Positions 4,599-55,776 of a DNA stretch of 64,000 bases are shown piece by piece. Source of the stretch: Bradymonadia bacterium (GTDB lineage: Bacteria > Myxococcota_A > Bradymonadia > UBA7976 > UBA1532). Both the position numbers and the translations under genes were made by a program. Under the pieces are notes generated by a model. It was given only the letters and a program-made list of their open reading frames with translations. It ran no database searches and was not told the origin of the DNA. How positions within the stretch are numbered: the stretch's first letter is position 1; each line of letters starts with the position of its first letter. The stretch lies in the NCBI GenBank assembly GCA_046290225.1, contig JBKAGE010000080.1:3619-67618 (forward strand), read 5' to 3'.

Positions 4599-4838
4599 AT
4601 GGGCGTCATCTACCTGCTCATCCCTTTGGCGCTCGGCATCATGATCGCCGCCGTGCTCACCTTCTGGTGGGCCGCCCGCGACGGCCAGTTCGACGACATG
4701 GACACCCCCGCCGTCCGCGTCCTCTTCGACGACGCCCACACATCACACGCACAAAACGCCGCACCCCAAAACGCCGCGGGTGCACCCACCACCCCAGCGC
4801 ATCGAGGCTTCGATCGCAGCAGGGAGGAGATGGCATGA
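4599..4838 (+). CDS. ccoS: cbb3-type cytochrome oxidase assembly protein CcoS
   Basis: [12 protein letters not shown]...[24 protein letters not shown] is the FixS/CcoS signature. GGAGG RBS. Confidence 0.92.
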
Positions 4839-7072: not shown

Positions 7073-7266
7073 TGAAGGAACTCATCAACGAGACAGATCA
7101 GCTCATCTTTCCGCTCATCTCGGCGGTGATGTTTCTGTCGATGTTCGTCGCCGCCCTCTTCTGGGTCTATCGAAAAGGCGGCCGGGAAGTCTACGCCCGT
7201 CGGAGCCAGATGGTGTTTCACGACGGCACCGTGAAGGGCACACAGAAGGAGACAGATCATGTCTGA
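7069..7266 (+). CDS. ccoQ: cbb3 oxidase subunit CcoQ
   Basis: 65-aa single-TM protein between ccoO and ccoP with overlapping start/stop codons. Confidence 0.8.
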
Positions 7267-7837: not shown

Positions 7838-7852
7838 TCAGGCGAGGCCCCC

Positions 7853-9816: not shown

Positions 9817-9851
9817 AGGGCGCCCGCAGAAGATCACACGAGGAGCACCCC

Positions 9852-10655
9852 ATGAGCATCATCGCCGTTCTCAGCGCCAGCCTGCTCGGCAGCCTGCACT
9901 GCGTGGGCATGTGCGGCGGCTTCGTCGCCCTCTACTCCGCCCCGGGCACCGGCGGCTGGCGCGCCCAGAGCGCCTACCACCTCGGGCGCCTGATCTCCTA
10001 CGCCACCCTTGGCGCCCTGGCAGGCTTTGCAGGCTCCCATCTCGATCTCGCCGGGGAGACCCTGCTCGGGGTGCAGCAAGTGGCGGCGGTGGCCATGGGC
10101 GGACTGCTCATTTTCATGGGCATCAAAGCCTTGGGTCTGTTCCCCGCAGCCCAGCGCGCGGCTCAGCACGACACCCCACTCGTACACATAGAAGACCGCA
10201 AGCGCCCGGGGCTGCTCGCCCGTATGCGCCACCGGGTCTCCACGCTCTACCGCAGCAAGGGCCCTGGTCCGGCCTTCGCCGTAGGTCTGTTGTCCACAGT
10301 ACTGCCCTGTGGCTGGCTCTGGGGATTCGTCGCCGTCGCTGCGGCCACGGGCTCGGCCTGGATGGGGGCAGTCTGGATGGCGGCCTTCTGGGTGGGCACG
10401 GTGCCCGCGCTGGGCTCCCTCGGCGTCGCCACCAGGTTGATGGGCAGCGCCCTACGCCCTTACGCCCCCCGCCTCACAGCGGCCGTCATGATCGGCTTCG
10501 GCGTGCTGGCCCTCGCAGGCAAAATGCCTCGCCCCGCCATGGCCCAACACCATCACCACGCCCCAGCAGCCACCACCCACGGCGAGCACACCACCCCTCA
10601 CAACAAGGCCGCACAACCCGAGCTCCCCACCCCCGGCGAGCACCACTGTCACTGA
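9852..10655 (+). CDS. DsbD_2/TauE-SafE-like membrane protein of cco clusters, His-rich tail
   Basis: GSLHCVGMCGG, YHLGRLISY, LPCGWLW, AFWVGTVP. AGGAG RBS. Confidence 0.88.
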   Translation: MSIIAVLSASLLGSLHCVGMCGGFVALYSAPGTGGWRAQSAYHLGRLISYATLGALAGFAGSHLDLAGETLLGVQQVAAVAMGGLLIFMGIKALGLFPAAQRAAQHDTPLVHIEDRKRPGLLARMRHRVSTLYRSKGPGPAFAVGLLSTVLPCGWLWGFVAVAAATGSAWMGAVWMAAFWVGTVPALGSLGVATRLMGSALRPYAPRLTAAVMIGFGVLALAGKMPRPAMAQHHHHAPAATTHGEHTTPHNKAAQPELPTPGEHHCH

Positions 10656-10726
10656 TCGCGCTCCCCCTCACCATTCCGTAACCCCCTCCCCCACAAGCGT
10701 TACCCAAACACCACACCCACAATCAG

Positions 10727-10912
10727 AATCCAGGGCAGGCCATGGGTCCAGAGTCGAACAGTGGCCAGCCCTCCGGGTGTCTTTCCGCTCCCTCCGGCCG
10801 GCTACGCCGCCCTCCACTCGCTCCAAGACATGCAGCCTCAGGCTGCACTGTCCACATCCGTAAAACTCGTGCCCGTGCCCGTGCCCGTGCCCGTGCCCGA
10901 AACTCTCTCTCC
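10727..10912. repeat. Degenerate/solo copy of the (GGCACG)5 fold-back element
   Basis: aactc-(gtgccc)5-gaaactctctct at 10864-10910. Upstream fragments aatccagggcaggccatgggtccag and cctccactcgctccaagacatgcagcctcaggctg resemble the interior of the full copies. Confidence 0.8.
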
Positions 10913-10976
10913 CAACCACCAGCGGCACAGAACCTGCTTCCCCCTCAAAGAAAGCCACCCCAAAGAGGCACCCCCC

Positions 10977-13481
10977 TTGGCATTGAGCGAGACCCACGTG
11001 CCATCCCAGGCAGCCCTCGAAGCAGTGCACTGCACCCACTGCGGGCTCCCGGTCCCCGAAGGCCTCATCGTCGGTGATCGAGAGGGCCCGCAGTTCTGCT
11101 GCAATGGCTGCCGCGCCGTGTATCAGATCATGTCCGACAACGGCCTCGGTGGGTTCTACGGACTGCGAGATCGTACAGGGGGCGCCCCCCGTGGCGTCGC
11201 CGTCGACGAAGAGTCCCTCGCCGGCGCCGACGCATACGCTCACTATGACGATCCCACCTTCATCGACGCCCACACCCGAGCCCACACCGAAGGTCAGCGC
11301 ACCATCGACCTGTATGCCGACGGCGTGCACTGCGCAGCCTGCGTGTGGGTCATGGAGCGGTTGCCCCAGGTGATGCCTGGGGTCGACACAGCCAGTCTGT
11401 CCCTCGCCGATCAGCGACTGCGTTTGAGCTGGTGGCCCGAGCAGGTCTCATTGGGGCAGATCGGTGGCTTCCTGCATCGACTCGGCTACGCCACCCATCC
11501 GCTCGGAGAGGCCGCTGATGCCGCCCGCAAAGCGGCCCGACGTGGCACTCTGATCCGGCTGGCCGTGGCCTTCGCCCTCGCAGGCAACACCATGCTCCTC
11601 GCCGCAGCGCTCTATGCCGGCGAGGGCACCCTCGATCCCACCATGGCCCGGTTCTTCGAATGGCTCAGCTTCGGCCTCGCCATCCCCGCAGTGACCTATG
11701 GCGCCTGGCCCTTTTACAGGGGCGCGCTCTCAGGTCTGCGGATGGGTCGGCCCCACATGGACCTCCCCGTGTCGCTGGGGCTGCTCGGCGGCTTCTTCGC
11801 CAGCGCCTATGCCACCATCACTCACCAGGGGCATGTCTACTTCGACTCGGTCACCGTATTGGTGTTTCTGTTATTGCTCGGCCGCTATGTGCAAAGCCGC
11901 GGACAGCAAGCTGCCATGACCGGCACCGAGCTCATGACCGCCCTCACGCCAGGGACCGCTTGGCGACGCATCGAGTTCGACGGGGCCCTCGAGTTTCGCC
12001 CCGCCTCGGTGAACACGCTGGTGGCAGGCGACGTGGTCCGGGTCCGCGCTGGGGAGACCTGCCCGGTGGATGGCAAAATCCACATCGGTGAGACCCACGT
12101 CGACGCCAGCCTGCTCACCGGTGAGAGCCGACCAGTGCCCGTAGGGCCTGGCGCCCCTGTGTATGCCGGCACGGTGAACATCGACGACGAGGTGCTCATC
12201 GAAGTGCAGGCCTCAGGGGCCTCGACCCGACTGGGGCGCCTCGCCGCTCTCGTCGACCAGGCTGATCCACATCGCGCTCCAGTGGTGCGGCTCTCAGATC
12301 GCATCGCCGGCATCTTCGTCTCCGTGGTCATCGGTCTCGCCGTCGCCGGGGGCGTGGCGTGGAGCTTCATCGACGCCGAGCGGATCTTCGACGTGGTGGT
12401 GTCGCTGCTGGTGGTCTCGTGCCCGTGTGCTCTGGGCCTCGCCACCCCCGTGGCCCTCGCCGTGGCTCGGGGCCGCGCCGCCCGCTCGGGCATTCTGATT
12501 CGCTCCACCACCGCGTTGGAGCGGCTGGTCCGTGTGCAGCAGGTCGTGCTCGACAAGACCGGCACCCTCACCGAAGGGCAGCTCACCGTCTCAGGTGCAC
12601 ACTGGAGCCCTCATGTCGAGCCCGCCCACCTGTGCGCCAGCATCGAAGCCCTCGAGCGACGCTCCAGCCATCCCGTGGCCCGGGCGGTGGCGCAGTGGGC
12701 TGGCCAGCACGCAGGCCTCTCCTCAACGCTCCAGGTCACTGACGTGCAAGAGCAGCCCAGCAAGGGGATCGCCGGTCGCATAGAAGATCGCCACATCATC
12801 GTGGGTCGGCTGGGATGGGCCGAGGGCGACAAGACCCTACCCCCTGATCTACACACCGCCGCAGATCAGGCGCTCCGTGCCGGCCACAGCGTCGTGCTCG
12901 TCGTCTGTGAGGGTGAGCCCGTGGGCGTCCTGGTCATGTCCGATCAGATTCGGCAGGACACACCTGCAGCCCTGAGCCGGCTCAGGGCTCTGGGGCTCGG
13001 CCTCTCGGTCCAGAGTGGCGATCACCCGCACGTGGTGGCCGAGATCGCCCGTCGGCTCGAGATCGACCAGGCCACAGGGGCGGCCAGCCCGGAAGACAAG
13101 GCCGCCGCTGTCACCGAGAGCCCCCACGTGGCCATGATCGGCGATGGGATCAACGACGCGCCAGCCCTACGTCAGGCCGAGGTGGGCATCGCCGTCGCCG
13201 GCGGCGCCGAAGCCGCGCTGCAGGTGGCCGACGTCTACCTCACCCGGCCGGGCCTCGACACCGTGGCCGACGTCTTCGAGGGTGCCCACCGTACCTTCGC
13301 CATCATCCGCCGAAACCTCGTCTTCTCGTTGCTCTACAACGTGCTGTTCGCCTCGCTGGCCCTCGCCGGTGAGATCACCCCCCTCGCCGCGGCGGTGCTG
13401 ATGCCCATCAGCAGTCTCACCGTCGTGGCTTCTTCTGTCTTCGGCCGTACCTGGCGGCCTCACCGTGAGCACCGGTCATGA
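10977..13481 (+). CDS. ccoI: Cu-translocating P1B-type ATPase CcoI/FixI
   Basis: CTHCGLPVP...FCCNGC, HCAAC, TGES, CPCALGL, DKTGT, HP, GDGINDAP, YN..M. Start uncertain: TTG 10977 after GAGG; the longer ORF-track start runs through the repeat. Confidence 0.93.
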   Translation: MALSETHVPSQAALEAVHCTHCGLPVPEGLIVGDREGPQFCCNGCRAVYQIMSDNGLGGFYGLRDRTGGAPRGVAVDEESLAGADAYAHYDDPTFIDAHTRAHTEGQRTIDLYADGVHCAACVWVMERLPQVMPGVDTASLSLADQRLRLSWWPEQVSLGQIGGFLHRLGYATHPLGEAADAARKAARRGTLIRLAVAFALAGNTMLLAAALYAGEGTLDPTMARFFEWLSFGLAIPAVTYGAWPFYRGALSGLRMGRPHMDLPVSLGLLGGFFASAYATITHQGHVYFDSVTVLVFLLLLGRYVQSRGQQAAMTGTELMTALTPGTAWRRIEFDGALEFRPASVNTLVAGDVVRVRAGETCPVDGKIHIGETHVDASLLTGESRPVPVGPGAPVYAGTVNIDDEVLIEVQASGASTRLGRLAALVDQADPHRAPVVRLSDRIAGIFVSVVIGLAVAGGVAWSFIDAERIFDVVVSLLVVSCPCALGLATPVALAVARGRAARSGILIRSTTALERLVRVQQVVLDKTGTLTEGQLTVSGAHWSPHVEPAHLCASIEALERRSSHPVARAVAQWAGQHAGLSSTLQVTDVQEQPSKGIAGRIEDRHIIVGRLGWAEGDKTLPPDLHTAADQALRAGHSVVLVVCEGEPVGVLVMSDQIRQDTPAALSRLRALGLGLSVQSGDHPHVVAEIARRLEIDQATGAASPEDKAAAVTESPHVAMIGDGINDAPALRQAEVGIAVAGGAEAALQVADVYLTRPGLDTVADVFEGAHRTFAIIRRNLVFSLLYNVLFASLALAGEITPLAAAVLMPISSLTVVASSVFGRTWRPHREHRS

Positions 13482-30509: not shown

Positions 30510-30511
30510 GG

Positions 30512-30850
30512 GGGCGCTCCGCGGGTAAGAGAGTTTGTCGGGCACGGGCACGGGCACGGGCACGGGCACGAGTTGATACATACCTGGACCGGTGGCCCTT
30601 CCTGGATTCAGGGCGCAGGTTGTCATTGAGGCTGAGATGGTGCGCTTCAGAACAGCCTGAGAATTCAGGTCTTGGGGTGTATGGAGGTCAAAAGCCTCCA
30701 TTGAGAAGTAGGTGGGGCCAAGCAGAGCCTCCACCATCCCAAACCTACGAGCAGAGTCATACAGGGCCACCGGTCCAGGTATGTATCAACTCGTGCCCGT
30801 GCCCGTGCCCGTGCCCGTGCCCGAAAAACTCTCTTACCCGCGGAGCGCCC
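30512..30850. mobile_element. Fold-back (MITE/REPIN-like) element copy 1 with 88-bp arms containing (GGCACG)5
   Basis: 30512-30599 is the reverse complement of 30763-30850 with one mismatch. The interior is homologous, in inverted orientation, to copies 2 and 3. Confidence 0.85.
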
Positions 30851-30919
30851 TCCACAACACCAAACCACCCACCCCCCTCACGAAATTGACGCCAAGAGCA
30901 GATCACCCACACTGCCCCC

Positions 30920-32180: not shown

Positions 32181-32220
32181 GTACACTTGTCAGTACGCTT
32201 GAACGTACTCTTAAGGGCAC
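32181..32220 (+). promoter_or_regulatory. Putative antitoxin operator: GTAC cores phased every 12 bp
   Basis: GTAC at 32181, 32193 and 32205 (each followed by nCTT), plus GCAC at 32217, directly before the antitoxin ATG. Confidence 0.65.
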
Positions 32221-32225
32221 TCAGG

Positions 32226-32510
32226 ATGTCGAGAATCCCTGCCATCATCCCAGTCACTGATCTCAGGCAAGACTCTGCTGCAGTGCTTGAGAAGCTCAAA
32301 CACTCTGACGAACCTGTCGTCATCACCCAACGCGGCCGCGCAGCGGCTGTTTTGCTCGATGTCGATGCATACGAGCGCCTGGCCAACGAGCGCGATCTAC
32401 TTCTGGCCCTCGCCGAGGGTGAGCGGGCAATTCGTAGGGGTGAGGTTTCAACGGCCAAAGAGGTATTCGACGACTTGGATACGTTGTTTGATGAGGACGC
32501 ACCCGAGTGA
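32226..32510 (+). CDS. Type II antitoxin, Phd/YefM family
   Basis: IIPVTDLRQD...EPVVITQRGRAAAVLLDVDAYE. Confidence 0.92.
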   Translation: MSRIPAIIPVTDLRQDSAAVLEKLKHSDEPVVITQRGRAAAVLLDVDAYERLANERDLLLALAEGERAIRRGEVSTAKEVFDDLDTLFDEDAPE

Positions 32511-32794
32511 AGAAAGTTGTCTTCGCTGACCCAGCTCGCAAAGCGCTCATTGCACAGCTCAAGTACATACGTCAGCGCAATCCCAACGCAGCTCGCCGGA
32601 TCAAGGACGAGGTCAAACAGGCCACCCTACGGCTATCAGAGTCTCCACACTCGGGACGCCCACTCTCAGAGTTTCCGCACGCCCAATATCGCGAAGTCAT
32701 TGTAAGGCCGCTGAGGTTGTTCTATCGGCTAGAGGATGATGTTGTACTCATTGTAGCCGTTTGGCATACGTCACAATCCGCTGATGAACCGTGA
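32507..32794 (+). CDS. Type II toxin, RelE/ParE family
   Basis: GTGA overlap with the antitoxin; YIRQRNPNAA...P.SGR...YREVI...LFYR....IVAVWH. Confidence 0.9.
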   Translation: MKKVVFADPARKALIAQLKYIRQRNPNAARRIKDEVKQATLRLSESPHSGRPLSEFPHAQYREVIVRPLRLFYRLEDDVVLIVAVWHTSQSADEP

Positions 32795-32814: not shown

Positions 32815-33556
32815 TCAACCAACATCAGAGCCCTCCTCAAAGGCCATAGAATTCAGAGTGCGATGAAGCATACTCCAATCAAGTTCAAGCCGGCCGTCTC
32901 TACATACATAGTAGTCACCCCCCAAAGACTCATAGGCGGAATGACGGTTTGAGGACAGAGGGTTCCAGAGACCAGCGAATCCAGGCCAAACGATTTCAGC
33001 TTCTCCAGACTTCATGAGAGTTCCCAAGCGCTCACGCCTTGCAGGCGTTGACTCTTGAGAGAGTGCGGTATGAGGCAAAAGCTGCATCTCATACAAGCAA
33101 TAACTTACGAGAAAAGACGAAAGGCTCTCAGACAAAATAACACGTTTTGACGCCCTTCTTTCTTCAGAATCTACGCATCCTGACTCGTAGCCACTGCAGT
33201 CACTCACCCATACCGGTGGGTCTTCTCCATAGGGAAGAGTGCCACATGACCAAACACACTGGTTCTCGAGGGCAAATATCAGTTCACCGCTTGAGCTGGG
33301 TTGCCAGAGAACAAATTCATTCTGCATGCCCAGTACCGATTCAGCAGCGGGGTGAATGCTCTGAGGCGGCGACCACCGAAGCGCATACCCATACAACCGC
33401 CTCAATGGCATCGGTAGTTGATACTTGTCCAACTCTTCAGACGGTACGCCATACTCGGGCTTCCACGGCCCGAGCCACCACGCCATGAACGCGCACAGCG
33501 CGTCCATCCTCTCTGCGGCTGTCCTTGCCCCCCATCAAATCCGGGCGCTCGCCCAT
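32815..33556 (-). pseudogene. SMI1/KNR4 (SUKH)-like immunity protein, apparently frameshifted near the 5' end
   Basis: LPMPLRRLY..QN..LIFALENQCVW..GEDPPVW..LSESLSSFL. A strong GGGAGGT RBS with ATG 33556 is out of frame by one base at a G6 run. An ORF from ATG 33507 remains intact. Confidence 0.55.
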
Positions 33557-41388: not shown

Positions 41389-41548
41389 GGGGCACTCCTG
41401 GCGAATCTCTGACATGTGTTGATGCTCTGACACTATGGGCCGCCGCAGCGCCTTGGAAAGGGCGCCACAGGAAACACACCGTTCCTGTCGTCTCGAGTCG
41501 GCCTCTGTCGCCCATATCGATGTTGATCACTTCATGAGGCATCGATCC

Positions 41549-44500
41549 ATGCATCAGACCCACGCAGCCCCTCTCCGCCTCGAGCCCACCACCACCCACG
41601 GCGCCCCTCAGACCGATGCGGCAGCAGGCGCTGTCGGGGCTCAGCTACAGGCCATGGAGCTTTTGGGGCACATGGGTCCACAACACATGGAGATGTCACC
41701 GGTGGCGCAGAGCGCCGCACTGCAGCCCATGGCCCAGCCCACGGGTCCGGCTCGAGCGCCCACGGCGAAGCCCATACCAACACGCCACGGATCATCCTCT
41801 CGAGGGCTCGAAGAAGAGCTCGCGCTCGATGAAGACGAGTTGCCGCCTGAGGCCCCTCCAGAGGATGGCGATGTGGCAACCGCCGAGACTCAGTCAGACC
41901 CTGATGAAGCTGAGGCTCAGGAGGAGACGCCTGTAGAGGCTGAAGCCATAGAGGAGGATGCACCGCCTCCGGAAGAAGAGGTGATCTCCGATGCCCCGAA
42001 CGCCCACGATGGAGAGGCACACACCAGCGAAGAAGAGGGCGACGAGGAGGCATCACCCAACCACCCACCTCAGGCTGAGGGCCCCACACACACGGACGCT
42101 GAGCACGCGAACACTGAGCACACGGACGCTGGCCTGGCAGACACAGAGCATACAAGTGCCGAGCAAAACCCACATCCACCCGAGGCGGGTGAGCACACAG
42201 ACGATGTTGGTCCCAAGGATGCTCAAAGCAACGACCCTCAGAGCAAAGACGACACGCAAACGCTCGACGCCCCACCTGAGCTGAGCGCAGCTCTACAACA
42301 CCCAGAAACCACTGGCGCGCCCTCTCCGCTGGAGCAGCACGGGCACGCACCAGCGTTGACACCTGGGGCAGAGCACATGCTCACGCCAGAGCAGAACATG
42401 GCAGTGGATCCACAGCTCAACCTGCCTGCCTCTGCGCCGACACTTGTTGCCCCCGCTGTGATGTCTCCTGCCGTCGGGCAGAAGATGGCGGGGCCCCTCG
42501 CTGGGGTCTCCATCCCCGACAACGTCGTCTCTGAGCAGGTCATGCGTTTCATCGCCCCTGATCTGGCCACCACCCTCGACGAGGCCTCTGACCGTGGCGC
42601 TCAGGGGCTCTCGGAGCAGTTGGACCTCGTCGCGCAGGGAGCGACCTCGGCCGCCCACCCCATCGAGGCGCCCGCCGCTGCGACCACGCCAGACCTCATC
42701 TCAGAGGGCGCAGCCTTGCTGCCAACATCCGATGCCGCAACAACGCTCTCCCCCATTGTCAAGCAAGCGCAAGGCCTTCAAGAGAGCGCCCTCGATGTCT
42801 TCGATGGCCAGGCCAGCGTCGACGCCCTGGTGCAGCGACCCGCTGATGACAGCGCGCCAGAGGGCACCCCACTCGTGGGGGCGCTGGCTGCTCTCAGCGA
42901 GCAGCTGAAGCCGCTCACCGAAGCTGCCGACTCGGCCTTTGCGGAGATCAAGACCAGCGTCACAGGCCATGGCCAGGCGGCGCAGAGCGCCCGCGACGAG
43001 GTACAGAGCTCCATCGCACAGGCTGATACAGAGATGCTGCATACGCCTGAGATAAAGCGACCTGCGCTGGCAGCCTCTCAGCTGGCAACGCCCACTCAAC
43101 CACCCCGCAAGGTTGCGCTGCCCTCTGCGCCCAAGATCAAGTCGCCCGGCCACGCTCGAACAGCATCCGCAGATACACACACAGAAGCCACGCGCTCGAC
43201 GGGCGCAGAGCAGACAGCCACTCCGCCTGTAGCCGCGCCTCAGCCCGTCACCATGGCAGCCCCGACGCCCAAAGCCATGCAGCTCACCCCGCCCCTCCCT
43301 CGCGTCGCGGCGCAGCCGGCGAAGGCGGCAGCGCCAGTGATGGTTGCCCCAGCTGCCGAGGTCTCTGCGGGCGAAACCCCTGCGGCCCTCGACCACAATG
43401 CCGTGGACCTCGCCGTCGAGCCCATGGCGCCCGCGCAGCTCGACGACAAAACAGCGCCTTCTCCAGAGAGCGCGCCACAGTGCGAAGGGTGTGATGCCCC
43501 TGCTGAAGCCCCCGATCGGGGTCACACGCTCACCGAACAAGTGCCGCAGTTCAGCCACACACCCCAACCCATGAGCCCGCTGGCACCACTTGAGGGTGGG
43601 GTTGCGCCTGTAGTGGCGCCGCCTGAAGCCCTGATGGGTATCCCTGTCATTGGAGAAGCCTTCCAGCAACTCGGCGGTGACCTGCACAGTCAGCTCACCG
43701 AAGGCATGTCACACGTGAGCGAGGGCGTACATACACAGCTCGAGGGCACCCGTGGCGATCTCGACGCACAGCTGGGTGAAGCAGCAGAAGGTGCACGTAC
43801 AACCTTCGGCGCTCAAGCAGAGCAGCTCGACGACGCGCTCCATGGACGCCAGGTGGCCCTCACCACAGCCCTGGGAGAGGCCGAGTGCGCTGTGGGGTGT
43901 GGTGCCAACACGCAGCGGGCCAGGGTCGGCCAGCAGGCTGGGGGTCGAACGGCTCAAGCCGAGGCGGCCACAGAGAGTCAGGTCGGCGAGGCCCACGCTC
44001 AGGGCGAAGCAGAGCTGGCGCGCATCACCGAGGAGGGGAAGTCCGGTGTCGCCGGGGCGCGTCGTCACGGCAAGACGGTCGTCACAGGCGTAGACGCCAA
44101 AGCCAAGACGTGCAGCGCTGAGACCAAAGCCCGCCTCGGCGCGCTCGCCACCGAGCTCACCGAGCACGAGGCCGCAGAGCTGACGCGTCTCGACGAGACC
44201 AGGGCGCAGGCCATCAAGGATCTCGACGCGAAGATGGAGAGCGAGCGCCAGCGCATGGTGGACGAGGCCAAAGCCCAGGAGGCCGCCCTCGACGCCGAGA
44301 TCGCCCGACGGGACAGCGAGATCCAAGGTGAGATCACCGAGCGAAAGACGCGACTCGATGAGCACGTGAAGATCGAGCACGGATTCCTCGAGCAATCGGC
44401 GAAGACCGAAAAAGAGGATCTCAACAAGCAGCTCGCCAAGCAAATCGCCGCCATCGACAAAGAAACCACCGCTCAAGACAAGGCCCTCGAAGCTGAAGGC

Positions 44501-46762
44501 ATCAAGCAAGCCAAAGCCGTCACCACCGAGGCACAGACACAGGGCAAGAAGGCCATCGCCATGGGCGAGAAGAAGGCCAAGGAGGCCATCGCCGCCGCCA
44601 ACGCCCGGGCCAGCGGCCTCAGCGACGCCACCGAGGCGAGCAAGGTCCGCAGCCTGGGCTTCGATCGCGCCTCCACCGCCCGCAACCGAGCCAGGTCACG
44701 GGTCAGATCACTGGAGCGTCGGGCCAAGGTGCAATCGTCGGTGATCGCCTTCCAGACCAAGATGAACCGCGCGGGGCTCGTCGTGAGCGCCAAGCAGAAA
44801 AAGACCACTCTACAAGAGACCCACAAGGCCTCGGTCAAGGCCATCGACCAGCAGCTTGCCCACGGCAAGAAAGCTGTGCAGAAGCAAGCAGACGACGGCC
44901 TCAAGGCCATCGAGGCCGATCGCAAGCAGATGCTCGCGGCTCTCGCGCAGCACAAGCAGGACACCCTCGCCAAGATCAACCAGACCATCCAAGATGGGGA
45001 GGCCGAGATCTCCAAGGTGCGTGATGCCGCGCTCCAGAAAATCGAGACCGCCCACCAGAAGGCCGCAGAGCAGATCAAGAAGAAGACCGCCGATGCTCTG
45101 GCGAAGCTCGAGGCTGGATGCGATCGGGATCTCACTCGTCTGGAGCGGATGGCAGAGCGCACCAAGAAGCAGGTCACCGCACAGATCACCACCGCCGAAG
45201 CCAAGATGAAGGGGCATATTCAGGTGGCGGCGCGCCGGGCGAAGCAGAAGATCAACCTGAAGGTGAACGCCATCAAGGCTCAGGGGCGGAAGGCTGTGAA
45301 AGCCGTGAAGACCTTCTCCGACGCAGCCCTGAAAGCCATCGACGCCTCCGCCACCGCGGCTCACATGGCCATCGGCAAGACCGGTACAGAAGAAGAGACC
45401 AAGATCCTGCAGGCCGGCAACATGCTGGAGCAGTCGCTCAAGCTGCTCGGCGACACCTACATGATCAACCTCAAGTCTGATCACAAAGCTCGACTCAAGG
45501 GGCTCAAAGACAGCGGGAAGGCCGCGCGGAAGGGGCTCATCAAACACCGCCAGGCGCTGCGCAAGGACATCGACCAGGAGTGGGCCGACGACGCCCGGCG
45601 CGCAGCAGAGAAGCTGCTCGACGACAACGGTGTCGCCAACGTGGTCACCGACGGCGAGGCCACCGAGGCAGCCCTGATCATGACCAGCCTGCCGGCGAAG
45701 GCCAAGAAGACCGCCTTCAAGGAGATGGACGACGATCGTTTCCAAAACCTGCTCGACGAGTTGCCGAGTGATCGCAAGATGGATCTCTACGCCCACATGA
45801 GCGGCACCGAGGTCTCGGGCCACATCGCCCACAACTTCGCCAAATGGGCCGGTGAAGATGGCTACCTGAGCGCCAAGGAGATCTCGGCTCTGATGGCTGA
45901 CCCAAACATCACAGGCGAAGATGCAGCGGCTCTGGCCACCCTGCGCTCCAAGCTACAGGGCGCGAGCAAGCTCAACAATGACGAGTGGGGAGACGAGACC
46001 ACGGGCATGACCCTCGACGACTTCGCCCACGTGGCCAAGACGAAGGATCTCGACTACGGCTACACCTCGGGACTCGACTCGATCAAAGAGAAGAAGAGCC
46101 AGGGACTGTTCACCGACCCGAAGCGGCAGGTGGACTGGCAGAAGATGAAGCAGAAGAAGATCGGGGATTGTTACTGGCTCGCCGCCCTCAACACACAGAT
46201 CAAGCGAGACCCCGACTTCCCCAACAAGGCCATTCAGGAGAACAAAGACGGCAGCTACACCGTAACCCTGCCCAACCGGGGCACCGTCACCGTCGAGCCC
46301 CTGACCGAGGCGGAGATGGCCACCACGGGCAACGCCGACGGCAACTGGCTCGCGGTGATGGAGAAGGCCTACGCCAAGAGCCGATCCAGCGAGCATGACG
46401 ACGAGTACCAGGCCATCCATGGGGATCCCATCGAGCTGGGCATCAAAGACGCCACGGGCAATGAAGCCAACGTGGACAAGATGAAGGATGTGAAGCCCAC
46501 AGACACGGCGAAGAAGATGGAGGACGCCTTCAAGAACGGCAAGGTGGTCACTGCCTCGATCAGCAAGAGCAACAAGTACAACCTGCCCGACGGCCACGCC
46601 TACACGGTGATGGGCTACGATCCGGTGAAGAAGACCGTCCAGCTGCGCAACCCCTGGGGCCACGGCGAGGGCAGCACCGGCGACGGCAAGAACGATGGGG
46701 TGTTCACGCTCACGCTGGAGGAGTATCACGACATCGTAAGCCGTACGGCGTACGAAGACTGA
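41549..46762 (+). CDS. Very large protein: acidic/Pro-rich N-terminus, long coiled coil, EF-hand-like motif, C-terminal calpain-like (C2) cysteine protease
   Basis: QKKIGDCYWLAAL, W..VMEKAYAK, GHAYTVMG, LRNPWG; DGYLSAKEI. Start uncertain (41435/41534/41549). Confidence 0.85.
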   Translation: MHQTHAAPLRLEPTTTHGAPQTDAAAGAVGAQLQAMELLGHMGPQHMEMSPVAQSAALQPMAQPTGPARAPTAKPIPTRHGSSSRGLEEELALDEDELPPEAPPEDGDVATAETQSDPDEAEAQEETPVEAEAIEEDAPPPEEEVISDAPNAHDGEAHTSEEEGDEEASPNHPPQAEGPTHTDAEHANTEHTDAGLADTEHTSAEQNPHPPEAGEHTDDVGPKDAQSNDPQSKDDTQTLDAPPELSAALQHPETTGAPSPLEQHGHAPALTPGAEHMLTPEQNMAVDPQLNLPASAPTLVAPAVMSPAVGQKMAGPLAGVSIPDNVVSEQVMRFIAPDLATTLDEASDRGAQGLSEQLDLVAQGATSAAHPIEAPAAATTPDLISEGAALLPTSDAATTLSPIVKQAQGLQESALDVFDGQASVDALVQRPADDSAPEGTPLVGALAALSEQLKPLTEAADSAFAEIKTSVTGHGQAAQSARDEVQSSIAQADTEMLHTPEIKRPALAASQLATPTQPPRKVALPSAPKIKSPGHARTASADTHTEATRSTGAEQTATPPVAAPQPVTMAAPTPKAMQLTPPLPRVAAQPAKAAAPVMVAPAAEVSAGETPAALDHNAVDLAVEPMAPAQLDDKTAPSPESAPQCEGCDAPAEAPDRGHTLTEQVPQFSHTPQPMSPLAPLEGGVAPVVAPPEALMGIPVIGEAFQQLGGDLHSQLTEGMSHVSEGVHTQLEGTRGDLDAQLGEAAEGARTTFGAQAEQLDDALHGRQVALTTALGEAECAVGCGANTQRARVGQQAGGRTAQAEAATESQVGEAHAQGEAELARITEEGKSGVAGARRHGKTVVTGVDAKAKTCSAETKARLGALATELTEHEAAELTRLDETRAQAIKDLDAKMESERQRMVDEAKAQEAALDAEIARRDSEIQGEITERKTRLDEHVKIEHGFLEQSAKTEKEDLNKQLAKQIAAIDKETTAQDKALEAEGIKQAKAVTTEAQTQGKKAIAMGEKKAKEAIAAANARASGLSDATEASKVRSLGFDRASTARNRARSRVRSLERRAKVQSSVIAFQTKMNRAGLVVSAKQKKTTLQETHKASVKAIDQQLAHGKKAVQKQADDGLKAIEADRKQMLAALAQHKQDTLAKINQTIQDGEAEISKVRDAALQKIETAHQKAAEQIKKKTADALAKLEAGCDRDLTRLERMAERTKKQVTAQITTAEAKMKGHIQVAARRAKQKINLKVNAIKAQGRKAVKAVKTFSDAALKAIDASATAAHMAIGKTGTEEETKILQAGNMLEQSLKLLGDTYMINLKSDHKARLKGLKDSGKAARKGLIKHRQALRKDIDQEWADDARRAAEKLLDDNGVANVVTDGEATEAALIMTSLPAKAKKTAFKEMDDDRFQNLLDELPSDRKMDLYAHMSGTEVSGHIAHNFAKWAGEDGYLSAKEISALMADPNITGEDAAALATLRSKLQGASKLNNDEWGDETTGMTLDDFAHVAKTKDLDYGYTSGLDSIKEKKSQGLFTDPKRQVDWQKMKQKKIGDCYWLAALNTQIKRDPDFPNKAIQENKDGSYTVTLPNRGTVTVEPLTEAEMATTGNADGNWLAVMEKAYAKSRSSEHDDEYQAIHGDPIELGIKDATGNEANVDKMKDVKPTDTAKKMEDAFKNGKVVTASISKSNKYNLPDGHAYTVMGYDPVKKTVQLRNPWGHGEGSTGDGKNDGVFTLTLEEYHDIVSRTAYED

Positions 46763-47815: not shown

Positions 47816-47831
47816 GGGCCCTCCTTCATGA

Positions 47832-48172
47832 AGAGAGAGTTTCGGGCACGGGCACGGGCACGGGCACGGGCACGAGTTGATTCGGGTGTGGACCCGTGGC
47901 CCTGCATGACTCCGCGCGTGGGTTTGTGGTGGTGGAGGCTCTACTCGGCCCCAGCAACTTATCAGTGGAGGTTTTTGCGCTCAATGCGCCCCATGTGCAA
48001 ACGGGAACATGGTTTACAGATCTGGCGAGAGCTGAACTCTCATGGCCTTCTGAAGCGTATCAACTCAGCCTCAATGACAACCATCGCCCTGAGCTCAGGA
48101 TGGGCTGCGGGTCAACATATGTATCAACTCGTGCCCGTGCCCGTGCCCGTGCCCGTGCCCGAAACTCTCTCT
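47832..48172. mobile_element. Fold-back element copy 2
   Basis: agagagagtttcg(ggcacg)5agttgat ... atcaactc(gtgccc)5gaaactctctct; interior homologous to copies 1 and 3. Confidence 0.85.
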
Positions 48173-50538: not shown

Positions 50539-50611
50539 GGTGCAACTCCTCGACCAGACCCTCTGAGGTACCGTGCGCGCAACCTCGCACGTCATGCATG
50601 CTCCATCAGGT

Positions 50612-51379
50612 ATGCGCTCAGCACAATACGACCACCTGCAAAATGTCTGTATCCAGGGTGCCAGCCGGGGCATCGGCCTCGCCCTCGTCGGCCGCATGCT
50701 TCAACGGCCTTCCGTAGGCCATGTCATCGCCACAGCGCGTCGGCCCGAGGCCTCGGAGGGGCTCTTCGCCCTCACCCAGCGCCATCCGGACCGCCTCATC
50801 ACCCTCACTGTAGATGTCACCGACGAAGGCTCGATGGCTGAAGCTGCCCGGATCTCCACAGCGCGGGTGGGGCGTTTGCACCTGCTGATGAACGTCGCGG
50901 GTCTGCTCCACGCCCCCGACGGTATGGCGCCCGAGAAACGCATCGAGGCCCTCGATCCCGGTTTTCTGGCGCGCGCGTTCGCCGTGAACGCAACGGGGCC
51001 AGCGTTAATGGTTAAACACATGCTCCCGCTACTCCGGCACGACGAGCGGGCAGTCATCGCCAACCTCTCGGCACGGGTGGGCAGCATCGAGGACAACGGC
51101 CTCGGGGGCTGGTATGGCTACAGGGCGTCGAAGGCTGCGCAGAACCAGCTCACCCGCACCCTGGCCATCGAGCTGCGGCGTCGGGCAAAGCACGTGATCT
51201 GCGTGGCATTGCATCCCGGCACGGTGGACACAGCGCTCTCACGACCTTTTCGAGGCGGGGCGAAGCGCCGCTTCACCCCCGACGAGGCCGCAGGCCATCT
51301 GCTCGACGTGATCGATGGCCTGGGCCCGGAAGACACTGGGGCGTTCTTCGCTTGGGACGGTTCACGGATCCCCTGGTGA
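50612..51379 (+). CDS. Short-chain dehydrogenase, CsgA/C-factor-like
   Basis: GASRGIG, PEKRI, SARVGSIEDN.LGGWYGYRASK, LHPGTVDT.LS.PF, FFAWDG..IPW. Confidence 0.9.
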   Translation: MRSAQYDHLQNVCIQGASRGIGLALVGRMLQRPSVGHVIATARRPEASEGLFALTQRHPDRLITLTVDVTDEGSMAEAARISTARVGRLHLLMNVAGLLHAPDGMAPEKRIEALDPGFLARAFAVNATGPALMVKHMLPLLRHDERAVIANLSARVGSIEDNGLGGWYGYRASKAAQNQLTRTLAIELRRRAKHVICVALHPGTVDTALSRPFRGGAKRRFTPDEAAGHLLDVIDGLGPEDTGAFFAWDGSRIPW

Positions 51380-51581
51380 GAAATCCTGGCATAACCGTTC
51401 TTGTCGCCAAATATGCATCGCTGTTGAGGTCAACCAAACGAAGGTGCCCGATGGGCAACTCTTCTTCGCTCTGCTGTTTTGTCAACAGCCTCCAAATCAG
51501 AGGAATACAGGCTCTTCTTATGGTGTATCTGATACGAGAGCCTCCGAGAGGCGAGGGCTCTTGTGGATTGGGGAGATACAC

Positions 51582-52601
51582 ATGGCAGACGATCAGGCAC
51601 TGACCGGCCCAGACATTGAGCGGCTGGTCAAACGCTACCATCTTGAGCGTGCACGATACGAGCAGGCTGCAGTACAAGTCGGCACCCGTATCAGTGCTGC
51701 GCTGAGGCGCGAGGCCCGCCTGAGATTCATGATCTCGACCCGGGCCAAACATCCTCAGGACCTCAAAGGTAAGCTCCATCGCAAGCGCGAAAATCCGAAA
51801 TATACATTCGCGGCGCTTGACGAAAACCTCAACGCCATCGTCAACGACCTGGCTGGATGCCGTGTCGTAGTTTACTCCGCTGAAGATCTACAGCAGGTGA
51901 CTCGGATCATCGATGGCCTGTTCGACATCCCAGATCTGCCAGATACACACCTCGACAAGAGCCAGGAAAAAGAAGGGTACCGTGCTACCCATCGGCTCGT
52001 AGCCCTCCCGAATGATGAGAACTCGTCAACATCAGGGGCGATCTGTGAAGTGCAAATCTGTACCGTCGCAGCTCACCTGTTCAACGAGCTTGAGCATGAC
52101 ATCACGTATAAAACACATGGGGTGAAACCAACCCCGGAAGCCTGTTCGTTGCTCGATGATCTGCGATGGCTCTCTCTGGTGTCTGATCACACAGCAAGTC
52201 GCCTGATTCAGGCACAACAAGTCGCACGCGCCAACATGGAAGAGCTGACCTCACCGGATACGCTCAGATTTGCCCTTGAAGGCGCTCTCGGACGCCCCAT
52301 GAGTGGTGACTTCACACGCCTACTGTCACTGCTTGGCTCCATATTGGAGACCGTGAATCTCAGCATCCTGCACTCTTTGGGAGGCGTCCACCAGCTTCTG
52401 AAATGCGGACGAGCGCTTTCACACACATTATCTCTCGAACACACCGATGATGTGATCTACATCACGCTGGGACTCACCGAGCAATTCGGCGAGGAGCTCG
52501 TCGAGCTCTCCTCGATGTGGTCAAAGCCCGAGCTGCCTCTGAGAGCAGCACTGCTCACATGGGCATCTGCTAGGTCAACTGTGCACGAGAGCGCTGAATG
52601 A
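51582..52601 (+). CDS. RelA/SpoT synthetase-domain protein (small alarmone synthetase-like) with C-terminal helical extension
   Basis: RAK...LKGK, DLAGCRVV, GYRATH, EVQICT, HLFNELEHDITYK. GGGAG RBS. AT-richer codon usage. Confidence 0.85.
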   Translation: MADDQALTGPDIERLVKRYHLERARYEQAAVQVGTRISAALRREARLRFMISTRAKHPQDLKGKLHRKRENPKYTFAALDENLNAIVNDLAGCRVVVYSAEDLQQVTRIIDGLFDIPDLPDTHLDKSQEKEGYRATHRLVALPNDENSSTSGAICEVQICTVAAHLFNELEHDITYKTHGVKPTPEACSLLDDLRWLSLVSDHTASRLIQAQQVARANMEELTSPDTLRFALEGALGRPMSGDFTRLLSLLGSILETVNLSILHSLGGVHQLLKCGRALSHTLSLEHTDDVIYITLGLTEQFGEELVELSSMWSKPELPLRAALLTWASARSTVHESAE

Positions 52602-52639
52602 GGCACACTGCCTGTGTCGATGCAAACAAGGAGATCCAC

Positions 52640-53155
52640 ATGGCCCCTCGCTTGACCATCACCAACGCCATCGAAGCACTGGAGAAATTCAACCAGCGCT
52701 ATGACACACTGGATGTGTTCGCGGACGACCTTTACGAACTCCAACAATTCAGACGGGATGGCTCACCTCCACCAGGGCTGCAGGTCAGTGGAAGCCATAC
52801 ACTCACGGTTGTCGACACCCCCTATGAAATTGAACTCCTTCCTGAGAATGGGGTCGCGCGCATTCAACGGGTTCGTTCATCTGTCAGCCCTCACAAAATC
52901 ATCGCAGGGGCAGCGATCGGGGGCATCATCGGCGCGACCCTCGAAACGGCTGTGACAGAAAAGGAGGGTGTCGGTGCCCTCGGCCTACTCCTCGGCCTGC
53001 TCGTTGGAGGTACTCTTGCTTCACATCAGAGCACAGCCCCGAGCGTTCGACGGGTCTTCACCCTCAACTTCGACTCAGAAGAGCAAAAGTGGAGGGCCTA
53101 TGATGGTGGCCTCGTAGATTGGATGAAGATGAAACTGTTGCCCGCTGCCTCATGA
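52640..53155 (+). CDS. Hypothetical protein with a two-helix glycine-zipper membrane segment
   Basis: AAGGAG RBS; IIAGAAIGGIIGATL and GVGALGLLLGLLVGGTLA. Confidence 0.75.
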   Translation: MAPRLTITNAIEALEKFNQRYDTLDVFADDLYELQQFRRDGSPPPGLQVSGSHTLTVVDTPYEIELLPENGVARIQRVRSSVSPHKIIAGAAIGGIIGATLETAVTEKEGVGALGLLLGLLVGGTLASHQSTAPSVRRVFTLNFDSEEQKWRAYDGGLVDWMKMKLLPAAS

Positions 53156-55260
53156 GCACCCTGGAAGCACAGCAAGCGGCAACCACCATAGACATGGATC
53201 TCGACGATCTGCTCGAGCTATACATCGACGACGCCCTCAAGGCCCTCGATCGAGAGACCGCCGAGCGCAAACAGCTCCGGGCCGCCTTCGAATCGGGCAC
53301 TCCGCTCACCGCCAAGGTGCAGCTCGATCTCTACGATCCGATCGACGGTGAGATCGTCACCGTCCCTGCCGGCGCAGTGGTGCACGTGGCCGAGCACCAA
53401 GGCGACATTTTGATCGGCAAGCTCTCCGACAACACCCACAGCCTCGCCGTCGTCTACGAGCCCCCGGGTCGTTGGATCCCCCGAAAGCACTTTCTGCCCC
53501 TGAGCACACTCGTCGATCGCACCCGCATCACTCAAGGCGAGTCACCGAGCGTGAAGAGCGCGGGCCCCGGTGGCTTCAAAGGCGCCGGCCTCAAGGGCCT
53601 CGACGATGGCACCGCCCTGGCGATCCAGAGCATCGACGCCCTGAACGCCCGAGACGCCTTCGCTGTGCTGCCTCGGGGCACCCGGATTTTGATCGACGCC
53701 GCTCAATTGCAGCTCGAAGAGGGCGCCCCGACCCCAAGCGGTGAGATTTGGGTAGAGGTCACCGCCGCCGTGGGCGACGTGCGTGACAAAGCGGGCGTCA
53801 CCGAGATGCCCGAGATCCCGATCCGCATCACTGGGGGTCCTTCGGGCACCCTGCCCTTCGAGGCGCTGCAGCCGCTGAGCTTCAAGACCCACGTGCTCAC
53901 CCCCGTGGCCTACGCCCAATATCTGGTGGAGCAGCGGGGCCGTCGGCGGTTCTTGCGGCGGATGACCGGCGCGGGCCTCGCCGCAGCCTTCCTGGCCATG
54001 GACGGCATCTGGTGGACCACTTCGAAGGCGGAGTGGCCCCCCAACGCACCTCCTGCAGATCGGGTGCTCTCGGCGATGATCCCTCAGCTCGGCGCCTTGC
54101 TGGGCTACCTGCGGGCCGGCGGCAAGTACTGGTTCGAGCTCGACGGCCCGCTGATGTCGCTCAGAGAAGCCCGCCGCGGCCCCGCTGTACGTGCGCTCTC
54201 CGACGCCCTCGATCAAATCGCAGCCATCTCGGATCACACATGGGATCTCTGGCGTGGCGCGTTCTATCGCCGAGTGCACGTGGGCTGGAACGAGCACAAA
54301 CACTATCGCACTGACAAAGACGGCAAACGGACTTACACCCACTCCACCTGGACCAAGAGCTACCGCAAGATCTGGTGCGAGCCCCCCGGACTCTCGGGCA
54401 CCTGGTCCGTGCTCCAAGACTGGGACACAGCGGATGACTGGCGTCGCTCCAAGGGGCATCGCATGCTCAACGTGCCCATCTTTCAGCTGCTCGAATGCAC
54501 CCCAGAAGAAGCAGAGTCCCAGTTTCGCACCATGCGGATGGACGTCTCCTTCGCTCGGGAGGCCACGATCTCCGCGGTGACGGCAGCCCTGTGCAGCGCC
54601 CCGGCGGCCTTCTACAGCGACATCCTCGGGGCCTTCAACGGCGTTTCTCAGATGCCCCACCCTGCCCAGAGCCGCTTCCCCGCTCAAAAGCCAGCCTTGC
54701 TGGCTATGGGGGCCATCGCTGGGGCCTTCATCGCTCAGAGCAGTCATCGAAAGCAGGCTGCGGAGCTGGGTCAGAACAAGAAGGCCCTCGGCGCGCTGCT
54801 CGAAACGCAGCTGCGTACGGTGCCGGAGATGGACTTCGAGCAGGCCTGGAATGCTTTCTTTGGGATCCCGAGCTCACAGGCGGTGGTGCAGACCACTGCC
54901 GAGCGCGGCCCGGAGACCCACGATCTGGGCCGCCGCGCTCAGAGTTTCACGTATGTGCACAGCGGAGGGTTCGACCGAGGGCGGCCGCTGGACTCGATCT
55001 ACGTGGATGCTGGGCCGGTGAAGACCTACTTCCCGGAGATCGCCCAACGATGGGGACAGGCGTCACAGGCGCTCGCTGACGCGTTGCGCGAAGCGGAGGT
55101 GTTGTTGCCTGTGCTTCAGAACGTGGTGGGTACTGATATTCTCAATGCCCGGATCCGGGAAGATGCCTCTGAGGCCAGCAGCGGTGGATGGAAGCAATCG
55201 CTGTGGTTCGCGGCGCCGATTTGGGGTGCTGCGTTGCTTGATGGATTGCTCAAACGCTGA
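53152..55260 (+). CDS. Hypothetical membrane protein
   Basis: Long GC3-rich ORF; ATGA overlap with the upstream gene (alternative start 53194); internal RRRFLRR + hydrophobic helix. Confidence 0.75.
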   Translation: MSTLEAQQAATTIDMDLDDLLELYIDDALKALDRETAERKQLRAAFESGTPLTAKVQLDLYDPIDGEIVTVPAGAVVHVAEHQGDILIGKLSDNTHSLAVVYEPPGRWIPRKHFLPLSTLVDRTRITQGESPSVKSAGPGGFKGAGLKGLDDGTALAIQSIDALNARDAFAVLPRGTRILIDAAQLQLEEGAPTPSGEIWVEVTAAVGDVRDKAGVTEMPEIPIRITGGPSGTLPFEALQPLSFKTHVLTPVAYAQYLVEQRGRRRFLRRMTGAGLAAAFLAMDGIWWTTSKAEWPPNAPPADRVLSAMIPQLGALLGYLRAGGKYWFELDGPLMSLREARRGPAVRALSDALDQIAAISDHTWDLWRGAFYRRVHVGWNEHKHYRTDKDGKRTYTHSTWTKSYRKIWCEPPGLSGTWSVLQDWDTADDWRRSKGHRMLNVPIFQLLECTPEEAESQFRTMRMDVSFAREATISAVTAALCSAPAAFYSDILGAFNGVSQMPHPAQSRFPAQKPALLAMGAIAGAFIAQSSHRKQAAELGQNKKALGALLETQLRTVPEMDFEQAWNAFFGIPSSQAVVQTTAERGPETHDLGRRAQSFTYVHSGGFDRGRPLDSIYVDAGPVKTYFPEIAQRWGQASQALADALREAEVLLPVLQNVVGTDILNARIREDASEASSGGWKQSLWFAAPIWGAALLDGLLKR

Positions 55261-55341
55261 GTGCAGGTCTCAATGCCCGTAGAGTGGTCAGATGGATGTA
55301 CATTGATGACTGATGCTCTCCTTGCCTCTCGATGTGGGGCT

Positions 55342-55671
55342 CGCTCCGCGGGCAAGAGAGTTTTTCGGGCACGGGCACGGGCACGGGCACGGGCACGAGT
55401 TGATACATACCTGGACCCGTGGTCCTGCATGGCGCCGCTCCTAGGCTCTTGGTGGTGGAGGTTCTACTCGGCCCCATATATCTCTCATTGGAGGTTTTGG
55501 CCTCCATACACCCCAAGAACTGAACGAACTGAGAGTTCAGGCATACATCATCTCAGCTCAATGACTGCCTTCGTCCTGAGTTTAGGATGGGTCACGGGTC
55601 CAGGTATGTATCAACTCGTGCCCGTGCCCGTGCCCGTGCCCGTGCCCGAAAACTCTCTTGCCAGCGGAGCG
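55342..55671. mobile_element. Fold-back element copy 3
   Basis: cgctccgcgggcaagagagtttttcg(ggcacg)5agttgatacatacctggacccgtg ... cacgggtccaggtatgtatcaactc(gtgccc)5gaaaactctcttgccagcggagcg. Confidence 0.85.
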
Positions 55672-55776
55672 CTCCCCATATCAGCCAATACACACCAACT
55701 CAGCAACCACAGTCACCCCACAGCCCAACACTCACATCGAGCATCAACAGTATGACTCACCTAATAAACGCTCGAC

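Follow-up and report, generated by a model that had tools for sequence, protein, structure and literature searches.

A two-gene unit pairing a small alarmone synthetase-like enzyme with a glycine-zipper protein in Myxococcota and Planctomycetota

What does a stand-alone synthetase of the RelA/SpoT family do when it is encoded together with a small glycine-zipper protein? The question is raised by a locus within a 64,000-nucleotide (nt) stretch of a Bradymonadia genome (assembly GCA_046290225.1, contig JBKAGE010000080.1), the whole of which is called the window below. An initial annotation, made from the letters alone, had singled out positions 51380-53155 as a low-G+C island coding for an alarmone-synthetase-like enzyme and a protein with two putative membrane helices, and had proposed an undescribed system of a synthetase with a membrane effector, a candidate nucleotide-signalling defence or toxSAS module that might make an atypical nucleotide or modify tRNA. 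Comparison with other loci identifies the two genes as a conserved and mobile pair, and several results fit another division of labour somewhat better. We favour, with a probability of about 0.45, a horizontally acquired module of the toxic small alarmone synthetase (toxSAS) type, in which the enzyme would be restrained by a membrane-associated partner. The elements of the module are:

51582-52601, + strand: gene 1 (P0002, 339 amino acids), small alarmone synthetase-like pyrophosphokinase, identified from Pfam, PDB and model matches
52602-52639, + strand: spacer of 38 nt between gene 1 and gene 2, with an AAGGAG ribosome-binding site, read from the sequence
52640-53155, + strand: gene 2 (P0003, 171 amino acids), glycine-zipper partner protein, defined by translation and family alignments

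Conservation and mobility of the gene pair

Gene 2 lay directly downstream of the synthetase gene in 12 genome loci. These comprise all eight genome contig loci with a full synthetase, a locus in the one positive relative (L015 in G017), L032 in G173, L031 in G195, and L077, which represents a second Planctomycetota genome. The same order was found in all 29 metagenome loci whose sequence continues for 100 nt or more past the synthetase; six further metagenome loci end 23 nt or less past the synthetase and fall outside this count. Neither gene was found intact without the other in the loci examined. The ninth genome contig locus (L009) retains synthetase residues 4-123 only and lacks gene 2, and three other loci (L037, L072 and L073) are decayed copies with both genes broken or gone. 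The two reading frames are also tightly coupled: with start codons assigned heuristically, the start of gene 2 overlapped the synthetase stop in 33 of 36 loci, by 4 nt in 22 of these. The window locus is an exception to this rule, its gene 1 stop lying at 52599-52601 and its gene 2 ATG at 52640, exactly the 38-bp gap originally reported. An all-against-all comparison of the flanks revealed no other conserved gene. The neighbourhood comparison that had been recommended as a check thus upheld the linkage, and defined the synthetase and gene 2 as a conserved, self-contained two-gene unit.

Strict adjacency, overlapping frames, sporadic occurrence and a G+C content (GC) below that of the flanks make the pair look like a horizontally acquired, mobile accessory unit, present in both Myxococcota and Planctomycetota. 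The synthetase was found in one of 40 relatives. Full-length gene 2 occurred in 4 of 401 sampled genomes of the phylum, where four more matches span the zipper segment only, and in 2 of 301 genomes of the phylum to which locus L008 belongs, labelled Planctomycetota; no second copy of gene 2 was found in the source genome. Named records with the pair come from Polyangiales, Haliangium, Sandaracinaceae, Kofleriaceae and one Planctomycetota metagenome-assembled genome (MAG). The GC of the module was lower than that of its flanks in all nine other loci compared, by 1.7-7.9 points, and the flanks differ from locus to locus, with an integrase in L069 and a Mu-type transposase in L051. In the window, genes 1 and 2 together have a GC of 0.557 against a mean of 0.637 (standard deviation 0.027 for windows of the same size), which ranks 15 among 1249 sliding windows; at third codon positions their GC is 0.60, compared with 0.76-0.82 in the flanking genes. 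The stretch 51380-53155 as a whole stands at 0.551, and the counts from which its AT-richness had first been noticed (31 of 60 G+C at 51781-51840 versus 39 of 60 at 5641-5700) were found to be exact.

The synthetase and its partner

Gene 1 encodes a small, stand-alone synthetase of the RelA/SpoT family. RelA_SpoT (PF04607; E 1.4e-14, 54.7 bits against a cut-off of 27) is its only Pfam domain, and the same domain is matched by all 21 family members. By Pfam, the protein has a single catalytic domain and is devoid of HD, TGS and ACT domains; the HD hydrolase domain is likewise absent from gene 2 in these searches, in line with the original remark that no hydrolase is present. NCBIfam gave a match to the RelQ (YjbM) equivalog below threshold. 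The closest PDB chains by sequence are of the RelQ/RelP type (3l9d, E 1.8e-9; 2be3, 5f2v, 6fgk and 6ewz), and a profile search of the PDB reached 2be3 at E 5.7e-13. An AlphaFold2 (AF2) model built on the 21 family members, with a mean predicted local distance difference test score (pLDDT) of 87.4, was matched by Foldseek to 2be3 and 5dec at E 2e-6. Fold comparison with VIA gave the following matches:

RelQ (5dec_A): Z 17.4, root mean square deviation 2.7, 182 residues
RelP (6ewz): Z 17.1
Long Rel: Z 13.0
CapRel: Z 10.9
Exported Streptomyces small alarmone synthetase (8vx3): Z 10.2
Tas1 (6ox6): Z 9.2
FaRel2: Z 6.6

The best of these matches, all to RelQ/RelP proteins (the SAS1/SAS2 enzymes of Firmicutes; Z 17.4, 17.1 and 16.2), extend over some 180-190 residues. 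In the alignment with Z 17.4, model residues 14-215 superpose on RelQ 3-197, long helices included. CD-NTases match only distantly, as nucleotidyltransferase folds (Z 5-6.3). The model comprises a RelQ/RelP-like catalytic core (about 8-215) followed by an all-helical C-terminal domain (about 225-338), which corresponds to the helical extension anticipated in the initial annotation. On sequence and model, then, the catalytic domain is nearest to the ordinary, (p)ppGpp-making RelQ/RelP enzymes, and an existing name among the RelA/SpoT homologue (RSH) subfamilies may apply to it.

The donor site of SaRelP, as described in PMC5794853, has the adenine stacked between R78 and R112, the phosphates touched by K80, K88 and R91, S84 on the alpha-phosphate, Mg held by D107 and E174, H190 on the ribose and Y151 in the G-loop; FaRel2 is described as having the same donor-site pattern (PMC11782079). 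Aligned with the ten SaRelP residues listed there (R78, K80, S84, K88, R91, D107, R112, Y151, E174 and H190), gene 1 presents R54, K56, D60, K64, R67, D89, R94, Y133, E156 and H172. Nine of the ten are thus kept, the exception being S84, replaced by D60. The donor-site residues are invariant or nearly so across the family, in which R54, K56, D89, R94, Y133, H137, E156, Q158, H172, Y176 and K177 admit no change. Judged by this alignment, the donor-ATP, Mg and catalytic site of gene 1 is intact.

The departures from RelQ/RelP, with which gene 1 shares only about 20% identity, concern three motifs: R54-x-K56-xxx-D60, where RelP/RelQ have Ser; E156-V-Q-I-C160-T; and H165-L-F167. All three of the non-canonical motifs first read from the sequence (RxKxxxD, EVQICT and HLF) are therefore real, resting on D60, C160 and F167, and they are not peculiar to this protein. 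Asp in place of the alpha-phosphate Ser and HLF instead of NFW are family-wide, and the EIQIRT Arg is kept in none of the 21 members, which have C, T, A or V at that position. Gene 1 further differs from RelQ/RelP in its extra helical domain of about 115 residues, its obligate downstream partner and its sporadic, mobile distribution; the last two features are not known for RelQ/RelP.

The C-terminal helical domain has its own conserved positions (L228, R238, G242, G276, W313, G315 and P316), and none of the 21 family members has a Pfam match there. An Atlas structure search with residues 215-339 returned HD-type phosphohydrolases only at template modelling (TM) scores of 0.33-0.44; as these lie below 0.5 and an H/HD/D motif is not conserved, this identity was rejected. 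The best VIA match on the helical part had Z 4.6.

The only PADLOC model matched by the synthetase is PDC-S33, which recognises 19 of the 21 family members (best E 1.4e-10) and whose profile length of 349 is near the 339 residues of gene 1. The match covers profile positions 46-173, that is, the catalytic domain, and leaves the C-terminal half unmatched; membership in PDC-S33 was rejected on these grounds. PDC-S33 is not mentioned in the literature searched.

In the source genome, the long RSH (a 790-residue frame) resides on a separate contig (C34). Two more weak RelA_SpoT matches were noted there, at G000:C73:53233-53487 (L012, in a 203-residue frame) and G000:C81:91722-92090 (L013, in a 410-residue frame).

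The product of gene 2 had no match in Pfam, NCBIfam or PADLOC. Its family forms 49 clusters when grouped at 90% identity; at 50% identity, 245 representatives pass E<=1e-3, of which 191 also pass E<=1e-10 and 79 E<=1e-30. Almost all of these are stand-alone proteins of 150-185 residues; nine of the best 150 exceed 200 residues. The most conserved parts are three: an N-terminal DVFADD motif with D25, F27, D29 and D30 invariant, the second hydrophobic helix (GLLLGLLVG), and a C-terminal motif with W151, Y154, G156, L158 and W161. In the AF2 model the N- and C-terminal parts form one beta-rich unit into which the hairpin (about 86-129) is inserted, residues 1-80 being modelled at pLDDT 87-94 and the hairpin at 44-56.

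The hairpin seen in the first reading of the sequence is borne out by hydrophobicity, the best 19-residue segment of P0003 scoring 1.83 on the Kyte-Doolittle scale, above the threshold of 1.6, which is attained by 25 of 33 homologues. The glycine-zipper models of Pfam, which do not recognise P0003 itself, match part of the family at E<=0.05: Gly-zipper_Omp 13 of the 33 homologues (best E 8.4e-5) and Rick_17kDa_Anti ('Glycine zipper 2TM') nine. Gene 2 is thus probably membrane-associated, to go by the hydrophobicity of most members. Helix 1 is polar in 4 of the 33 homologues, with the soluble parts still conserved, and is degenerate in L006 and L007. Fold searches with the model gave no solved match (best VIA Z 3.7; best Foldseek E 0.07). 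The highest-ranking matches were weak ones to RNA-ligase and CYTH-like folds, at Foldseek E 0.07-2 and VIA Z of at most 3.7, and were treated as noise. A PycC match in one of the 33 homologues (E 0.012) is at chance level.

Prediction of the complex between the two proteins gave interaction prediction scores from aligned errors (ipSAE) of 0.41, 0.46 and 0.55 (median 0.46), against 0.00 for each of three controls; contact agreement among the runs was at least 85% and partner pLDDT at least 79. Of 157 solved complexes, 116 attain the mark applied to this score, as do 2 of 215 mismatched pairs; at ipSAE values of 0.60 or below are found only 18 of the 157 solved complexes, and both of the passing mismatches. 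The predictions therefore lend weak support to binding. Since obligate adjacency and coupling make an interaction likely beforehand, we take direct binding of the predicted kind as likely.

In PADLOC neither gene is assigned to a system, and searches of it turned up neither the partner family nor the pairing. The literature searched held no instance of a glycine-zipper protein paired with an alarmone synthetase, and the papers listed for small alarmone synthetases of myxobacteria contained nothing relevant. The pairing is, apparently, undescribed. Until now, the cognate partners known for small alarmone synthetases have come from a few antitoxin or immunity folds; what is new here is a RelQ/RelP-like enzyme paired with a different, probably membrane-associated partner, in a compact unit of 1.6 kb.

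Possible roles of the pair

Enzymes of the toxSAS group are described as being encoded beside cognate antitoxin or immunity proteins, which act by direct binding or by hydrolysis of the product, and overproduced (p)ppGpp as toxic by itself (PMC12691689; PMC7229694). By the logic usual in the field, a stand-alone synthetase followed by a small co-conserved ORF (open reading frame) would read as a toxSAS together with the antitoxin or immunity protein that restrains it. In the mechanism that we propose by this analogy, gene 1 would be an active ATP-dependent 3'-pyrophosphokinase whose uncontrolled activity would arrest growth through alarmone overproduction or nucleotide depletion or, less likely, should the acceptor be tRNA, through pyrophosphorylation of tRNA 3' ends. 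Translational coupling would ensure that gene 2 is made in fixed proportion to gene 1; the gene 2 protein would bind the enzyme and keep it off, and the glycine-zipper hairpin would tether the complex to the membrane's inner face. Phage infection, membrane damage or another such trigger might then release or activate the enzyme, with the helical C-terminal domain of gene 1 as the likely docking or sensing surface. In favour of this reading are the intact catalytic site, the obligate pairing and coupling of the genes, their accessory and mobile character, the weakly supported binding, the toxSAS precedents and the defence systems that adjoin some of the loci. Should this be correct, the pair would represent a new way of toxSAS control, possibly with a membrane-linked trigger.

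The known toxSAS modules (FaRel2-ATfaRel2, FaRel, PhRel and CapRel) resemble the pair in being mobile two-gene units that encode a stand-alone synthetase along with its small cognate partner. CapRel has a C-terminal extension past the catalytic core, as does gene 1, but its antitoxin domain is fused; FaRel2 shares with gene 1 the R-x-K-xxx-(S/D)-xxx-K-xx-R signature and the catalytic Asp, as far as its published donor site is described. A role of gene 2 as neutraliser or regulator fits several of the results somewhat better than a role as effector, because of the weakly supported binding prediction and the decay of helix 1 in 4 of the 33 homologues. Loss of both genes together in the decayed remnants is compatible with either role.

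A number of points weigh against a toxSAS with its neutraliser. The modelled fold of gene 1 is nearest to that of RelQ/RelP (Z 17.4 and 17.1), which are housekeeping enzymes and not toxic, the toxSAS enzymes scoring lower (6.6-10.9; CapRel 10.9, FaRel2 6.6), and toxSAS enzymes were absent from PDB sequence searches with gene 1 at E<=1. Gene 2 showed no likeness to any known antitoxin or immunity domain in Pfam, PADLOC, NCBIfam or fold searches; by the searches run it is not of the pZFD, SAH, Tis1-like or Panacea type of toxSAS partner, and carries a glycine-zipper hairpin instead, though a distant relationship may lie beyond the reach of such searches. Antitoxins rarely have a hairpin of the membrane type, and the grade attained by the predicted binding is only weak. 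Unlike classical type II modules, the synthetase pair has the toxin-first order and no DNA-binding domain. In the window its neighbours are housekeeping genes (methionine aminopeptidase-like, FAD oxidoreductase, short-chain dehydrogenase and MgsA-type ATPase), and none of 30 pattern matches in viral contigs was a relative, which led us to reject a phage origin as well. Finally, defence genes beside the pair are few in the metagenome loci. A strong defence-gene neighbour was seen in about 6 of 28 loci, a raw count that carries no background rate; strong PADLOC matches lay within a few kb in five of nine genome loci, and the 19 metagenome loci, with 73 ORFs, yielded a single one (L048, a RecQ-like DpdF/PsyrT match). 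This association leaves the link of the pair to defence islands suggestive, and it is in this form that the proposal of a defence module survives, neither gene being part of a PADLOC system. The five genome loci and their PADLOC neighbours are:

L001: Wadjet JetC
L002: candidate PDC-S01
L007: Mokosh MkoA and MkoB, directly downstream
L008: BREX PglZ, BrxD and BrxHI, the last of them 48 nt upstream of the synthetase
L009: type IV restriction enzyme

In L004 and L005 the kinase and ABC matches are generic. Two of the loci listed deserve a brief description. In L007, from a Polyangiales MAG, the gene 2 homologue with its degenerate hairpin runs without a stop into an MkoA-like protein (7029-11039, + strand; PADLOC E 3e-225 over ORF residues 168-1321), and MkoB comes next; this single case may be a real fusion, a lost stop or an assembly error. 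In L008, from a Planctomycetota MAG, the BREX genes occupy 48-5953 (PglZ, E 2.9e-201; BrxD, E 9.9e-202; BrxHI, E 8e-284) and the module lies at 6001-7508.

The effector arrangement put forward in the initial annotation is, in our estimate, unlikely. Here gene 1 would make a signal, a diffusible pyrophosphorylated nucleotide, whose binding to the beta-rich domain of gene 2 would cause the zipper helices to oligomerise and permeabilise the inner membrane, resulting in abortive infection in the manner of CBASS (cyclic-oligonucleotide-based antiphage signalling system) and Pycsar (pyrimidine cyclase system for antiphage resistance), with infection sensed perhaps through the C-terminal helical domain of gene 1. 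The operon logic is indeed similar, a nucleotide-forming enzyme being followed by a small Gly-zipper hairpin protein with two hydrophobic helices and a compact, conserved soluble domain. The invariant acidic and aromatic residues of gene 2 (D25, F27, D29, D30, W151, Y154 and W161), the high conservation of its helix 2, the Gly-zipper Pfam models matched by 9-13 of the 33 homologues, and the occurrence of this rare mobile unit among defence genes at some loci all speak in its favour. An unusual product is also possible, because the family replaces both the EIQIRT Arg and the RxKxxxS Ser.

Membership in CBASS or Pycsar proper can be rejected: gene 1 is of the RelA/SpoT family and not a CD-NTase or PycC cyclase, and the hairpin of gene 2 is set midway in the soluble domain, not at either end. 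The more general scheme meets other difficulties. Loss of helix 1 hydrophobicity in 4 of the 33 homologues, and in L007, with the soluble parts kept, is difficult to reconcile with a pore-forming effector; model confidence for the hairpin is low; and gene 2 has no recognised nucleotide-sensor fold (Z 3.7, Foldseek E 0.07) and no PADLOC effector match. A killer gated by (p)ppGpp would, moreover, fire on starvation, because the cell's own long RSH makes the same product. Neither the strict 1:1 coupling nor the weakly supported binding is required by such a scheme. Of the initial proposal, the link between a small alarmone synthetase and a glycine-zipper protein stands as real, conserved and, apparently, undescribed, and a role of gene 2 as neutraliser or regulator fits somewhat better than one as effector. 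Were the effector role correct after all, an alarmone-type second messenger would for the first time have a killing effector dedicated to it. That a RelA/SpoT-family enzyme should generate the signal of abortive infection, possibly as a non-canonical product gating a Gly-zipper membrane effector, and so provide an alarmone counterpart of CBASS and Pycsar, we hold to be improbable.

We are still more doubtful of an accessory stress-signalling pair, in which a (p)ppGpp synthetase switched by a membrane-anchored envelope sensor would add a horizontally acquired input to the stringent response. Such a function would suit an enzyme whose nearest relatives, by sequence and fold, are RelQ/RelP and whose catalytic site appears intact, as well as a partner that is probably membrane-associated; the housekeeping flanks in the window and the lack of defence neighbours at most loci agree with it. 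It sits poorly with the distribution, which is too sporadic for such a role (1 of 40 relatives; 4 of 401 and 2 of 301 genomes). A module whose GC is always under that of its flanks, which jumps between phyla and contexts and leaves decayed remnants, has the features of selfish or defence modules.

Delivery of the synthetase to competitors, with gene 2 protecting the producer, is very improbable: the toxin-first order, small second ORF and overlapping frames are typical of effector-immunity pairs, and exported and secretion-system-linked alarmone synthetases are described (PMC12691689; Tas1, 6ox6; small alarmone synthetase 8vx3), but gene 1 starts at a helix of the catalytic domain, has neither signal peptide nor trafficking domain, and lacks recurring secretion-system genes beside the pair, the sole match being one to an extracellular contractile injection system (eCIS) core protein in L003. 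That eCIS-core match is the only secretion-type neighbour recorded for the pair.

Surroundings of the module in the window

The features adjoining the two genes are:

50573-51379: short-chain dehydrogenase (SDR) gene, upstream neighbour of the module
51380-51581, + strand: AT-rich intergenic region of 202 nt, GC 0.505, presumed promoter and 5' untranslated region of the module
53152-55260, + strand: third ORF (P0001, 702 amino acids), in ATGA overlap with the gene 2 stop

The gene 1 ATG is preceded, 6 nt ahead, by GGGGAG. A sigma-70 consensus scan of 51380-51581 found no promoter on the + strand upstream of gene 1, and the promoter is placed in this region by presumption. Among sequencing runs, no RNA run was listed as containing the sequence, and one DNA run matched 0.05 of the sampled words.

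The third ORF, missed in the initial annotation, was considered as a further component and rejected. It is absent from all nine genome contig loci; homologues of 40-46% identity occur in 7 of 24 genomes of the same family with neither the pair nor the window neighbours beside them; in G017 the homologue is on a different contig from the pair; and its GC (0.646) is host-like. P0001 is thus a lineage gene outside the two-gene unit, probably co-transcribed with the inserted pair in the window. It had no match in Pfam, NCBIfam or PADLOC and holds several hydrophobic stretches.

An element of about 340 nt resembling a miniature inverted-repeat transposable element (MITE) is present at 47831-48172, 55331-55682 and about 30510-30856, with terminal inverted repeats of 60-78 nt that contain (CGGGCA)5. 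Two of these copies bracket a 7.2-kb segment holding the module. The 8.58-Mb genome contains at least 40 near-full copies (40 of 116 candidates scored); therefore the repeats are not module-specific borders, and they were discarded as limits of the island.

The sole other part of the window with comparably low GC lies at about 31.8-33.7 kb (GC 0.545). It harbours a classical type II toxin-antitoxin pair at 32187-32794 (+ strand), made of a Phd/YefM antitoxin (E 5.6e-17) and a ParE toxin (E 5.4e-19) with a 4-nt overlap, and adjoining it an ORF of 230 amino acids at 32815-33507 (- strand) with no Pfam match. Further along, an ORF of 1775 amino acids at 41435-46762 (+ strand) carries a C-terminal calpain-type cysteine protease domain (E 1.8e-17); its DNA is strongly skewed for A over T, the AT skew reaching 0.50 at 44.0-45.0 kb.

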